IMG/VR virus record: IMGVR_UViG_3300028534_000019
Location: 31,091 to 95,090 of that record
DNA length: 64,000 nucleotides
Reading direction: 5' to 3' (one strand)
From: a virus
Taxonomy: Duplodnaviria > Heunggongvirae > Uroviricota > Caudoviricetes
Shown: piece by piece, positions 33,465 through 36,473 of the stretch
Layout: each line of letters opens with the position of its first letter
Position numbering within the stretch: the first letter of the stretch is position 1
Position numbers and translations under genes: made by a program
Notes under the pieces: model-generated
What the model saw: the letters and a program-made list of their open reading frames with translations, nothing else
What the model was told of the DNA's origin: nothing
Databases searched by the model: none

Positions 33465-34577
33465 ATGAAAATTACAGAGATTAAACCTATTTTACAGTTT
33501 TCTAAAGATGCTGATGATGCTGTAATCATTGAGGGTAAACACGGTATTGGTAAATCAGAAATAGTTAAACAATATTGTTCGGAAAATGGTTATTTTTATA
33601 CTGTTTTATTTTTAAGTCATCAAGAAGTTGGTGATTTGATTGGTATGCCTTTTGAAAAAAATGGTATTCAATATTGGTCTAAACCATCTTGGTTAGTAAG
33701 AATGGAAGAAGCATCAGCAAGAGGGGAACATAATGTTTTACTCTTAGATGAGTTAAACCGAGCCCAAACTGATGTATTACAAAGTGCTTTACAACTTGTT
33801 TTAGAAAGACAAATTCACGAGCATTTCTTACCTACTACTGATGGTGTAAGAAGTCAAGTAATTGCTTGTATTAACCCTGATGATGATTTATATCAAGTAA
33901 TTACACTTGACCCAGCACTAAAAGATAGATTTTTACATTTAAAAACAAGTGAAGATTTACAAGGATGGGTTAAATGGGGTGGTGAAAAAGGAGTACCTGA
34001 TGTTGTTATTCATTACTTGCTTGAAAATGAAAATGATTTTCATAGTACAAATGAAGATGGTGAGGGTGCTACACCAAGAAGTTGGTATAAATTAAGTCAA
34101 TTCTTGAAAATATTTGAAGATAAAGAAGTTGAAGAATTTCAACTTTGGGAGATTATTAAAGGTAAAGTAGGTTCAAGTATCGGTAGCAAATTCCTTAACT
34201 TTTATAATACTCATAGTACATTTATTGATGTTACAAAAATTAAAAAGTTTTTAAATAAATATAAAAGAGATATTTCTGATTTACCTGAAATTGGTGCTGA
34301 ATTAGCTAGTTATATTAAAGGTCTTGAACAAGTAACTAAAGTAGAACAAGTTAATAAACTATATCACGACAGTATTGAAAAAATTAAAGATACTAAAGTT
34401 ACTATGGATGATGAAGATATTTTCACTATTTTTGCTATGCTTCACGCTTTTGAAATAGAAGTAACAACATCAGTTATGAAGCAATGGAAAAATGAAAGTG
34501 TGAGTGATTTTATGGATTTTGTTAAAAAAGATAATAAAGAACTCATTACATTAATAACAAGAAGATTAAAAACATAA
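33465..34577 (+). CDS. AAA+ ATPase (MoxR / AAA_5-like)
   Basis: Walker A IIEGKHGIGKSE, Walker B plus sensor LLLDELNRAQTDVLQSALQLVLER, and ACINPDD...LDPALKDRF. Confidence 0.8.
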   Translation: MKITEIKPILQFSKDADDAVIIEGKHGIGKSEIVKQYCSENGYFYTVLFLSHQEVGDLIGMPFEKNGIQYWSKPSWLVRMEEASARGEHNVLLLDELNRAQTDVLQSALQLVLERQIHEHFLPTTDGVRSQVIACINPDDDLYQVITLDPALKDRFLHLKTSEDLQGWVKWGGEKGVPDVVIHYLLENENDFHSTNEDGEGATPRSWYKLSQFLKIFEDKEVEEFQLWEIIKGKVGSSIGSKFLNFYNTHSTFIDVTKIKKFLNKYKRDISDLPEIGAELASYIKGLEQVTKVEQVNKLYHDSIEKIKDTKVTMDDEDIFTIFAMLHAFEIEVTTSVMKQWKNESVSDFMDFVKKDNKELITLITRRLKT

Positions 34578-34592
34578 AAGAGGTATTAAAAA

Positions 34593-34802
34593 ATGTATGC
34601 TTTAATAGGTTATAATGATGAGTATTATTACATTCAAATTTTTTCAGAAACTGATGTTGTGTATGGTTATATAATATATAACTTTAGTGGGGATAAAAGT
34701 TTAGTAGTTGATAATTTCCCAATTAGTTCAGTATTAAAAAGGTTTGAAACATTATATACTATTGAAGAAATACAAAATTTATACCCTGAATTAAAGTTCT
34801 AA
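34593..34802 (+). CDS. Hypothetical protein with C-terminal YPELKF motif
   Basis: Ends ...IEEIQNLYPELKF*. Confidence 0.5.
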   Translation: MYALIGYNDEYYYIQIFSETDVVYGYIIYNFSGDKSLVVDNFPISSVLKRFETLYTIEEIQNLYPELKF

Positions 34803-34814
34803 GAAAGGTTTTAT

Positions 34815-35183
34815 ATGGTAAAATTTCATAAAGATTATGATTTTAAAGGTGCTGATTTAGAAATCTTAAAAAAATTTCATAAAGATAATAATATTTCAAG
34901 AGTTGTATTAGATATAGAACTTAAAAAAGATAAAATTATGTTTTATTGGATTGAATATTCTAATTTTAGATATTTGTATGTTGATGATTTAAAAAGAAGT
35001 AGAGATATTAATATTAGCATATTCAAAATTAATGATATTATTTCTATAACAAATAGAGATTTTAACACACAAATATATTTTAAAGATGATATGTTTTATA
35101 TACCAAATAATAAAAATACTGATGTATTAATTGATGAATTTATCGAAGGTGATACATCAGTGAAAATTTTAAGAAAGATTTAA
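34815..35183 (+). CDS. Hypothetical protein
   Basis: 122-codon ORF. Confidence 0.5.
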   Translation: MVKFHKDYDFKGADLEILKKFHKDNNISRVVLDIELKKDKIMFYWIEYSNFRYLYVDDLKRSRDINISIFKINDIISITNRDFNTQIYFKDDMFYIPNNKNTDVLIDEFIEGDTSVKILRKI

Positions 35184-35201
35184 TATTTTTTAGTGTATAA
35201 T
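35180..35201 (+). promoter_or_regulatory. Promoter candidate (TTAATA-N10-TATAAT)
   Basis: TTAATATTTTTTAGTGTATAAT, 19 nt upstream of the ATG at 35220. Confidence 0.4.
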
Positions 35202-35219
35202 GTCATATAAAGGATTAAA

Positions 35220-36473
35220 ATGGCTAAGAGTAATTTAAGAAGTGAAATTATTGAGGAAACTGTTATAAATGCCTTTTCAAATAAGAGAGATGGTTTTGTA
35301 AATGAGTATGCTTTTTATTTTCATATGTTTGCTATGTGTAATATAATTGAAACAGAAGATGTAGAGTTAGCAGGTGTTAATTTTATTAAAAAATGGAATT
35401 TATATATAAATCCTAAAGAGTTTCAAAAATATTCACTTAATCAAAGACTTGGTATAATTAAGCACGAAATGCTTCACATAATTTTTAACCATTTAGTAAG
35501 AATGGAAAACAAAGAAAAAGAAGAATGGAATTTAGCTACTGATTGTGCTATTAATCAAATGATTAGAAGTGCTGATTTACCTAAAGAAAGAGTAGATACA
35601 AAAAGTCTAAGTGAATATTTGGGTGTTGATGTACCTACTAATCAAAGTGCTGATTATTATTATGATTTAATTATGAAAAATAAAAAACAACAAAATAAAT
35701 GTGGTGGCAGTTCATCAGGTGGTTGTCCACAACAAGGTGATGGTAGTGGTTCTGATGAAAGTGATGGTTTAGGTACATTAGATGACCATAATAAATGGGA
35801 AGAGTCGGAAAGTATGGATGGTATAGAAGAACTTATTGAATCTTCTGTTAAAGATATGGTTTCAAAAGCCCAAGACAAAAACAGAGGTCTAACACCACAA
35901 GAACTTAATGAAATTATTGAGATTATTTTTGGTAAATCTGTTGTTAATTGGAAAAGTGTTTTAAGAAATATTGTTTCTAATAGAAGAGTTAATAAAAGAT
36001 ATACAATTCAAAAAAGGAATAGAAGATTCCCAAAAAGAATAGAAATTAGAGGTACAACAAAAGAGAAAAAATTTGATATTGTTGTTATACTTGATATTTC
36101 AGGTAGTATGAATGATAGTGAAATTCAAGATGGTTTAAATGAAATTAAAGCAATTGCTAAATTAACAAAATCTAGTATTAAGATAATTCAAGTCGATACA
36201 ACTGTTAAAGAAGTTCAAGAGTTTACAGCAAAGACAAAAACATTTAATAGACTTGGTTGTGGTGGTACAATGATGTATCCAGCACTTCAATATATAAAAG
36301 ATAACAAAATAGATATGGATTGTGGCATTTTGATTTCAGATATGATGATTGAAAGTTTAGATACTTGGGAACAAAAAGGTTTAGCACCAAAATGTAAATT
36401 TATCTTTTTGAATACTAGTAACCACTCACTAAAAACAACAACAAGAAAAAACTATATGTTTTTTGATTTATAA
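35220..36473 (+). CDS. Zincin-like metallopeptidase domain plus von Willebrand A domain protein (DUF2201-type partner of MoxR ATPases)
   Basis: HExxH in GIIKHEMLHIIFNH, a Gly/Ser/Asp linker CGGSSSGGCPQQGDGSGSDESDG, and the VWA MIDAS motif VVILDISGSMND. Confidence 0.75.
   Translation: MAKSNLRSEIIEETVINAFSNKRDGFVNEYAFYFHMFAMCNIIETEDVELAGVNFIKKWNLYINPKEFQKYSLNQRLGIIKHEMLHIIFNHLVRMENKEKEEWNLATDCAINQMIRSADLPKERVDTKSLSEYLGVDVPTNQSADYYYDLIMKNKKQQNKCGGSSSGGCPQQGDGSGSDESDGLGTLDDHNKWEESESMDGIEELIESSVKDMVSKAQDKNRGLTPQELNEIIEIIFGKSVVNWKSVLRNIVSNRRVNKRYTIQKRNRRFPKRIEIRGTTKEKKFDIVVILDISGSMNDSEIQDGLNEIKAIAKLTKSSIKIIQVDTTVKEVQEFTAKTKTFNRLGCGGTMMYPALQYIKDNKIDMDCGILISDMMIESLDTWEQKGLAPKCKFIFLNTSNHSLKTTTRKNYMFFDL

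Follow-up and report, generated by a model that had tools for sequence, protein, structure and literature searches.

NorQ/NorD and CbbQ/CbbO each consist of an AAA_5 MoxR-type ATPase and a VWA adaptor that together remodel a client enzyme. The adaptors NorD and CbbO have no peptidase domain and serve one defined client enzyme each. In FtsH, an AAA+ ATPase is fused to an HExxH zincin, and the protein is held in an SPFH cage by HflK/C. Among phages, gp24 and gp25 are part of the core gene set in N4-like phages, where they belong to the middle genes. For group 2.2 jumbo phages, Iyer et al. (2021, PMC7824862) described a MoxR ATPase and a vWA protein as chaperone and cochaperone, the vWA domain carrying a fused metallopeptidase, and proposed that the two assemble virions and process proteins by peptidolysis; as cited there, tail development of Acidianus two-tailed virus needs a MoxR-vWA system. 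In bacterial MoxR-vWA systems, an associated zincin cleaves small, fast-diverging proteins that have a conserved C-terminal peptide (Kaur et al., 2020, PMC7159879). Here we analyze a MoxR-like ATPase and a zincin-VWA protein encoded in a stretch of 64,000 nucleotides (nt) of a Caudoviricetes virus (positions 31,091 to 95,090 of IMG/VR record IMGVR_UViG_3300028534_000019), which is called the window in its full length. Two small open reading frames (ORFs) lie between both genes, and one of them ends in a short C-terminal peptide, the PE tail, that is found throughout this phage lineage on otherwise unrelated proteins. New here are the tailed small ORFs embedded in, and enriched beside, an already known pair.

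By sequence, the pair belongs to the N4 gp24/gp25 family (PHROG 1297/1314; Pfam DUF2201_N plus DUF2201). The first-pass annotation of the window had read it as a chaperone-like MoxR-VWA pair with an unknown substrate, which we judge to be right, but it missed that phages were already known to have exactly this pair, with zincin and VWA domain in one protein. Both proteins gave tblastn matches in N4-like phages (gp24/gp25), in Bacillus phages AR9 and PBS1 and in the Alteromonas AD45 phages, the closest matches being Vibrio phages Va1, phiKT1024, pv27 and phiTY18 (35-41% identity). A Moorella phage was matched by the VWA protein, and the annotation under that match also has the ATPase. The hosts of phages with the pair include E. 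coli, Pseudomonas, Bacillus, Vibrio and Roseobacter. In the literature searched, no experimental work on any gp24/gp25-family member and nothing relevant on DUF2201/COG3864 was found. We should note that PHROG 1314 is labeled ‘HNH endonuclease’, a label that has spread to RefSeq (NC_008720 N4 gp25, NC_031039, NC_021532); nothing in the predicted zincin and VWA domain content backs it.

The window pair shares with N4 gp24/gp25 both PHROG families, the domain order in the VWA protein, a non-late setting and a function that is likewise unassigned, as well as an SPFH gene a few ORFs upstream. In N4, however, the two genes adjoin without an ORF between them, the window proteins are only ~22-25% identical to their N4 counterparts, and none of the gp1-gp49 products has a C-terminal PE tail. 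NorQ/NorD and CbbQ/CbbO differ in that the window VWA protein adds a peptidase domain; at the sequence level, the pair matched no solved chain. The likeness to FtsH is one of working principle only (an AAA+ motor, an HExxH zincin and a nearby SPFH protein in the window, in locus L018 and in N4). The window pair belongs to another AAA+ clade and another zincin family, divides the activities between two proteins and has a VWA domain in addition; it is not a member of the FtsH family. With the jumbo-phage pair, including AR9 g028/g029, the window shares the N-terminal zincin-vWA fusion, a separate MoxR-type ATPase and a large phage genome, whereas the published account mentions neither intervening small ORFs nor a common C-terminal tail (Iyer et al., 2021, PMC7824862). 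The genes g028 and g029 of AR9 touch, and four genes downstream of them end in YEAxx(I/L)xxx(L/I) instead of the PE tail. These are g030, g031, g033 and g034 (L002 6265-10122), which share C-terminal [KR]x[KR]xYEAxx(I/L)xxx(L/I)-COOH and may be simple paralogues. The peptide-processing modules of bacterial MoxR-vWA ternary conflict systems (Kaur et al., 2020, PMC7159879) resemble the window in their parts: besides a MoxR ATPase, both have a vWA protein and a zincin, and their small proteins diverge fast and are conserved only at the C-terminus. Their motif is FxSxx, RxD or acidic, compared to PExFI-COOH in the clade of the window, and the phage module lacks a VMAP, radical-SAM or AP-ATPase partner and has its zincin fused to the vWA domain.

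The four ORFs that the first-pass annotation had named (the ATPase gene, the VWA gene and the two small ORFs between them) all lie on the + strand, exactly where it had placed them. Together with their flanking genes and promoter-like sites they read as follows:

33195..33216, + strand: promoter-like site TTAAG-N11-TATAAT, upstream of the putative unit and 30 nt from its first gene
33246..33461, + strand: ORF of 71 amino acids (aa), first gene of the putative unit, with a ribosome-binding site (RBS) and no Pfam or PHROG match
33465..34577, + strand: MoxR-like AAA+ ATPase of the N4 gp24 family, 370 aa, assigned by Pfam, PHROG and motif alignment
34593..34802, + strand: 69-aa ORF ending NLYPELKF, with an RBS, coding-type composition and a weak profile match
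34815..35183, + strand: 122-aa ORF without tail, with an RBS, matching itself only
35220..36473, + strand: predicted zincin (HExxH), Gly/Ser/Asp linker and VWA domain (metal-ion-dependent adhesion site, MIDAS) of the N4 gp25/DUF2201 family, 417 aa
36486..36833, + strand: 115-aa ORF that closes the putative unit, with hydrophobic segments and no Pfam or PHROG match
36850..36870, + strand: promoter-like site TTAAG-N10-TATAAT at the end of the putative unit, from a motif scan of the window

The ATPase matches Pfam AAA_5 with 41.5 bits (cut-off 22) and PHROG 1297 ‘ATPase’ with an E-value of 3.9e-52. Its Walker A motif is G24-KHGIGK-S31 and its Walker B motif LLLD95E96LNRA, which leads into the (L/I)NRA...Q.ALL stretch typical of MoxR (LLLD95E96LNRAQTDVLQSALQL). 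The Walker A, Walker B DE(L)NRA and DRF motifs align with those of N4 gp24 and AR9 g028, and the protein is 40% identical to the ATPase of Vibrio phages Va1/phiKT1024. We class it by its profile matches as MoxR-like in the broad AAA_5 sense and outside MoxR proper, because it scores below the curated cut-offs of the MoxR-proper models (AAA_3, 21.9 bits vs. 27; bpMoxR, 18.6 vs. 27). The ATPases of several comparison loci (designated here by L numbers) contain an insertion of ~60 residues just upstream of Walker B, specifically those of L004 (328-1629), L006 (823-2118), L011, L012 and L001; it is absent from the ATPases of the window, L005, phiKT1024, AR9 and N4.

The zincin-VWA protein is matched by DUF2201_N, a putative metallopeptidase domain (68.9 bits vs. 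a cut-off of 23.2), by the VWA-like DUF2201 (40.9 vs. 26.4) and by PHROG 1314 over residues 28-403 (E-value 2.4e-68). An alignment of 48 homologues has 24 invariant columns, among them the zincin residues H82, E83, H86, H91 and D108 and the five MIDAS residues D292, S294, S296, T350 and D374. The AlphaFold2 (AF2) model built on this alignment has a mean predicted local distance difference test (pLDDT) score of 84.9, with a low-confidence linker at residues 168-182, and structural matching confirmed the VWA fold, the matches including the NorD VWA domain of the NorQ-NorD complex. The first-pass calls for both proteins (a MoxR/AAA_5-type ATPase with GKHGIGKS; an HExxH domain, a Gly/Ser/Asp linker and a VWA domain with intact MIDAS motif) are thus borne out by Pfam, PHROG, motifs and invariant residues. 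When the ATPase and the VWA profile were compared with PDB sequences, only noise came back and no solved structure was matched; NCBIfam gave only a marginal SprT match. In some homologues (P0077, P0105, P0011, P0080), the linker contains a DnaJ-type CxxCxGxG zinc-finger (PF00684), at the place of which the linker of the window protein keeps only C-GGSSSGG-C.

The PE tail has the form ...[Y/H/F]-P-E-x-hydrophobic-hydrophobic-COOH and occurs lineage-wide on otherwise unrelated proteins. Seven ORFs of the window end in YPE[ILY]xF-stop, while about 0.08 gene ends would be expected by chance, given that PE..[hydrophobic] occurs internally at a rate of 0.00086 per residue:

Tailed ORFs of the window: 6954-7157, 8181-8423, 17250-18041, 25550-26602, 30909-31217, 32911-33183, 34593-34802

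On the + strand of the window, TAYCCNGAR lies exactly six codons ahead of a stop codon in seven of its eight occurrences. The 69-aa ORF (NLYPELKF) has the P-E-x-x-hydrophobic-COOH end, although its penultimate Lys is not hydrophobic, and the 122-aa ORF does not. The tail is even more common in phiKT1024 (loci L013-L016), where 74 of 329 genes (22%), arranged in long tandem blocks throughout the non-structural genome, end in [P/A]-E-x-hydrophobic-hydrophobic vs. 0.19 expected. Examples of tail peptides are EEIQNLYPELKF and LYIKEKYPEIIF, and ...KHPELFI in phiKT1024. An amphipathic stretch precedes the tail (hydrophobic at -13/-10, K/R at -9, H/Y/F at -6, P at -5, E at -4), and the last residue depends on the lineage, being F in the window and I in phiKT1024. 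The tailed 350-aa protein of the window (25550-26602) is homologous to a tailed 379-aa protein encoded right after the ATPase gene of phiKT1024. No description of a shared PE tail was found in the literature searched.

Two explanations of the tail were rejected. With the tail trimmed, the 74 tailed phiKT1024 proteins fall into 67 BLAST components, so that the tail is the only part they have in common and they do not form one paralogous family. The tail is also not a translated DNA signal such as a promoter, terminator or recombination site: relatives use four Pro codons (CCA, CCT, CCC, CCG) and both Glu codons (GAA, GAG) and differ in the final codons as well, which indicates that selection acts on the peptide and not on the DNA.

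Relatives of the module were retrieved from IMG/VR by a scan with the VWA alignment, which yielded 80 loci; a scan with the single VWA protein recovered none. The ATPase gene is found at 10 kb or less from the VWA gene in 62 of these 80 loci. Both genes are directly adjacent in 27 loci, separated by one ORF in 16 and by two or more in 19, while in 17 the ATPase gene is more than 10 kb away or off the contig. In the distant, N4-like lineages the two genes as a rule adjoin directly, whereas in the clade nearest the window, which itself has two ORFs between co-directional partners, they as a rule have ORFs between them or lie apart. The AR9 genes have an annotated early promoter in front; in AD45 the order is reversed, the VWA gene preceding the ATPase gene and overlapping it; in Va1 and phiKT1024, the closest cultured relatives, ~46 kb separates the partners. 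In the closest metagenomic relatives, the VWA protein is 41-48% identical to that of the window. Five of them (L004, L005, L006, L007, L010) encode, from the ATPase to the VWA gene, ORFs of 127/131 aa and 79/82 aa, (extra small ORFs) and one of 232/249 aa. In L012, an ORF of 139 aa and then one of 78 aa lie between the ATPase gene and the VWA gene, which is followed downstream by a phosphoesterase gene and later a CCA-enzyme gene in the same order as in the window, and L011 has VWA, 144 aa, ATPase. With profiles of the 127-139-aa and 232-249-aa families, counterparts were found neither in the window nor in the 80 loci. The first-pass annotation had proposed synteny of all four genes in related phages as a check, and strict four-gene synteny fails at the sequence level, because these families have no window counterparts; the small ORFs are without clear homologues, and the two large genes touch in N4, AR9 and most distant relatives and lie far apart in the closest cultured ones. 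What does recur between or beside the two genes in the tail-bearing clade is a tailed small ORF, with a body that is unrelated from case to case. The ORFs that L004, L005, L006, L010 and L012 have between the two partners are mostly tailed, among them all members of three conserved families, and the tails found there and on several ORFs past the VWA gene follow [Y/F/N]PE-x-hydrophobic-[I/L/V].

Because tails are common, adjacency in a single genome means little, and the association was therefore evaluated by permutation at the level of lineages, with one representative per VWA lineage (60% identity clusters, 18 lineages) and tail labels shuffled within each locus. The slots flanking the VWA and ATPase genes contain 19 tailed genes vs. 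6.9 expected (~2.7-fold; 0 of 20,000 permutations), and 10 tailed genes lie between the two partners vs. 4.1 expected (P = 0.0003). The enrichment in the flanking slots is retained when only small same-strand genes are shuffled (17 vs. 6.9; 0 of 20,000) and under circular shifts that preserve the clustering of tails (20 vs. 7.2; 0 of 20,000). It is also seen where tails are rare. L049 has a single tail among 36 genes, located between the ATPase and VWA genes, L051 has two among 42, one of which immediately follows the VWA gene, and the L029/L032/L048 group has its sole tail between the pair. In phiKT1024, three of the four genes flanking the ATPase and VWA genes are tailed despite the separation of 46 kb.

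These results bear on a first alternative, namely that the adjacency is coincidental. The tail would then be a general tag of the lineage that is read by some other hub, for instance a clamp, chaperone or protease, or a protein of the host, and the pair, having an unrelated job, would lie among tailed genes because it is situated in a gene-shuffling region packed with small non-late genes. We regard this as quite possible, although it is not the reading that we prefer. The tandem blocks of tailed genes across the non-structural genome of phiKT1024 agree with it, as do the tailed genes of the window that lie 7-28 kb away from the module and the unrelated bodies of the tailed proteins, some of which have the size of enzymes (263, 350, 379 aa). 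The persistence of the enrichment under the small same-strand and circular-shift controls, its presence in loci with few tails and its retention through rearrangements (ATPase first, VWA first, 46 kb apart) speak against coincidence.

Further observations count against a link between tail and pair. The P-values overstate independence, because the lineages share ancestry, and with a tail on 22% of the phiKT1024 genes any single adjacency is weak evidence. The 122-aa ORF of the window has neither a tail nor homologues. Around the pair of ~30 distant VWA lineages, including AR9 and AD45, no tails were found except one chance-level match (L062), and N4 has no tailed family; the machine thus does not need tails, since N4, AR9, AD45 and the distant lineages have the pair without them. 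Finally, L036 (IMG/VR 3300026488_000015) has the variant P-H-x-F-L instead of P-E-x-F-I on ~15 of 42 genes, also flanking the ATPase and VWA genes, and this switch from E to H is unmatched in the pair: the MIDAS and HExxH motifs are intact and there is no clear compensating change in the VWA protein or the ATPase. Two ATPase substitutions at otherwise conserved columns of L036, G67E and P150D, are anecdotal and make no clear charge swap. The link that the first-pass annotation had drawn between the module and a C-terminal-motif family hence stands in so far as the enrichment beside the pair is significant, and is weaker than it appeared because the tail is so common. A functional link between tail and pair is plausible, but unproven.

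Both small ORFs between the partners, which the first-pass annotation had pointed out (one by its YPELKF end), look like real genes. Each has an AGGA/GAGG-type RBS 6-10 nt upstream and a coding-type base composition by codon position, and both were also called by gene callers in public assemblies. The 69-aa ORF matched only itself among 5.8 billion proteins. A profile of the 78-82-aa family of the relatives nevertheless ranks it first of the 196 window ORFs, with a weak score (E-value 0.0019, 12.2 bits); other tailed window ORFs score far lower with this profile, and the match is therefore not due to the tail alone. Judged from this profile match, the 69-aa ORF is a probable, diverged member of the tailed 78-82-aa family, at the position that this family has between the partners in relatives. 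The 122-aa ORF likewise matched only itself among the 5.8 billion proteins, and a HMMER scan of 1.84 billion representatives returned the ORF itself and one low-complexity match. It has no Pfam, PHROG, NCBIfam or PADLOC match, and its single-sequence AF2 model (pLDDT 42.8) is unusable. One could suppose that both ORFs are chance frames in an AT-rich spacer, as neither has a homologue in billions of proteins and long open frames are less rare than usual in a genome of 26% G+C. With an RBS at the right distance, a spacing of 12-36 nt, coding-like composition, public gene calls, ORFs at the same place in relatives and a tail under protein-level selection in the 69-aa ORF, this is most improbable.

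The genomic context suggests when the module may be expressed. The window has 26% G+C, and the + strand carries almost all genes. Its T4-like replication and structural genes (single-stranded DNA-binding protein, RNase H, primase, large terminase, tail tube and baseplate proteins) are 22-54% identical to those of Vibrio phage phiKT1024. The motif TTAAG-N10-12-TATAAT occurs at 14 sites in the window vs. 1.7 ± 1.35 expected. Thirteen of these sites are on the + strand, 12 of which are located outside + strand genes and upstream of start codons, for most at a distance of about 35 nt:

Promoter-like sites, + strand (examples): 1140, 6654, 13876, 15817, 21313, 26613, 31230, 32553, 33195, 36850, 39378, 48822

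With its box 10-12 nt upstream of a sigma-70-type -10 element, the motif recalls the layout of T4 middle promoters. The sites at 33195 and 36850 bracket six genes (71-aa ORF, ATPase, 69-aa ORF, 122-aa ORF, VWA, 115-aa ORF), with gaps of 15, 12 and 36 nt between the ATPase, 69-aa, 122-aa and VWA genes; the 115-aa ORF begins 12 nt past the VWA gene, and the next promoter-like site comes after it. Late boxes of the T4 type (TATAAATA) occur upstream of the structural genes, which begin near 44.8 kb, although they are not enriched in the window overall. Scans for intrinsic terminators and generic sigma-70 promoters between 31 and 38.5 kb gave no more than shuffled expectation. Because TTAAG-type sites bracket the six genes and TATAAATA boxes sit upstream of the structural genes, we infer from sequence that 33246-36833 is one co-directional six-gene transcription unit with a non-late promoter that has a sigma-70-type -10 box. 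Three tailed genes (ending at 26602, 31217 and 33183) each stop 10-12 nt ahead of a TTAAG-N10-12-TATAAT site. Two near-identical stretches of ~70 nt, at 6630-6720 and 36824-36916 (91% mean column identity over 93 aligned columns), each span a promoter, leader and RBS (the second includes the site at 36850) and are followed by unrelated genes, one being at 6706; they may represent a mobile regulatory cassette.

The putative non-late setting is relevant for a second alternative, in which the pair is a chaperone and maturation protease that folds and trims structural proteins during virion assembly, with the small ORFs being irrelevant. This corresponds to the role proposed by Iyer et al. (2021, PMC7824862), who also cite the dependence of Acidianus two-tailed virus tail development on a MoxR-vWA system, and the DnaJ-type zinc-finger (PF00684) in the linkers of P0077 and P0105 suggests the handling of unfolded proteins. 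The non-late promoter and the position of the module away from the structural genes with their late boxes do not fit, nor do the AR9 pair behind an early promoter and the N4 pair among the middle genes, although a later role is still compatible with such timing. We consider this explanation rather unlikely. A protease for host takeover or counter-defence, directed against host proteins with the small ORFs as specificity adaptors, would agree with a unit that is non-late by position and promoter, and with small neighbors that diverge as fast as arms-race genes would. In addition, an anti-Pycsar Apyc1-like gene is located 3-5 kb downstream of the VWA gene in four relatives (L004 8845-9684, L005 9621-10460, L010 12546-13886, L011 11301-11861); no counterpart was noticed in the module part of the window. 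However, none of the four module proteins matched a PADLOC defence model at an E-value of 0.01 or better, and no support was found in the literature. The core pair is kept across very different hosts, and a phage-internal role is therefore favored over a host-specific target. The host-takeover explanation is the less probable of these two, and we deem it distinctly unlikely.

Starting from the observed domain identities, conserved catalytic and MIDAS residues, family membership, gene order, promoter motif and enrichment of tailed ORFs, we consider it somewhat probable that the pair forms a gp24/gp25-type, ATP-driven machine for remodeling and cutting, encoded in a non-late unit, and that tailed proteins are its likeliest clients or adaptors in this clade. 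By analogy with the solved MoxR-type pairs (NorQ/NorD, CbbQ/CbbO, RavA/ViaA, Rea1), the VWA protein would dock on the ATPase ring and its MIDAS site would hold an acidic group of the client. The ATPase would remodel the client with ATP, and the fused minimal HExxH zincin, which a flexible acidic/Gly-rich linker joins to the VWA domain, would cut it. The likeliest clients or adaptors in the clade would be the proteins that end in [Y/H/F]-P-E-x-hydrophobic-hydrophobic-COOH, the 69-aa ORF being one of them. Complex formation, proteolysis, the timing of expression and the contact between tail and machine are what we infer in this scheme.

A more specific version would regard the PE tail as a phage-private C-terminal tag and the MoxR/zincin-VWA pair as its reader, which would grip the free C-terminus at the MIDAS or in the zincin cleft and then trim, unfold, activate or destroy the tagged protein. 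Extended peptides bound by MIDAS sites are known from the literature. The switch from E to H in L036, which has no matching change in the pair, disfavors the Glu as MIDAS ligand and leaves the free C-terminal carboxylate as a candidate. We see this version as a doubtful one.

The module is located among small ORFs and genes for a phosphoesterase, a CCA-adding enzyme and an Hsp70 homologue. A DNA-level search of 50,697 phage records with the 3-kb module region gave no match. An SPFH/Band 7 protein and a small membrane protein are encoded a few ORFs upstream of the ATPase in the window (31346-31549, 31568-32455) and in N4 (gp19-gp20; L017 8057-9092), and in L018 an SPFH gene (4702-5562) lies three ORFs upstream of the ATPase gene. 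The SPFH gene as a regular third partner was rejected, since it was found in only two of 87 loci plus N4. A transfer-messenger RNA (tmRNA) at 39452-39772 on the + strand, 3 kb downstream of the module, is another C-terminal tagging device in this genome (Rfam RF00023, 90.8 bits vs. a gathering score of 47; ARAGORN tag peptide ANNTDYTGNTVLSA). Two Hsp70/DnaK-like genes (18640-20490 and 39844-41706; 616 and 620 aa), assigned by reading the sequence, have no counterpart in phiKT1024, which is annotated instead with GroEL and GroES homologues.

The pair is part of the N4-like core and also occurs widely in jumbo and T4-like phages, and its function is still unassigned. With a candidate class of clients, this function would become testable in the cultured Vibrio phages phiKT1024, Va1, pv27 and phiTY18. 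If the pair does read the tail, it would provide self-encoded, ATP-driven control over up to a fifth of the proteins of a phage, it would be a viral counterpart of tag-directed proteolysis, and the N4 gp24/gp25 family would gain its first function. One C-terminal pentapeptide on 8-22% of the otherwise unrelated proteins of a phage implies a hub that reads the tail. If that hub is the machine described here, phage infection would have a level of post-translational control that is new; otherwise, the module would be one more member of a known, uncharacterized family.

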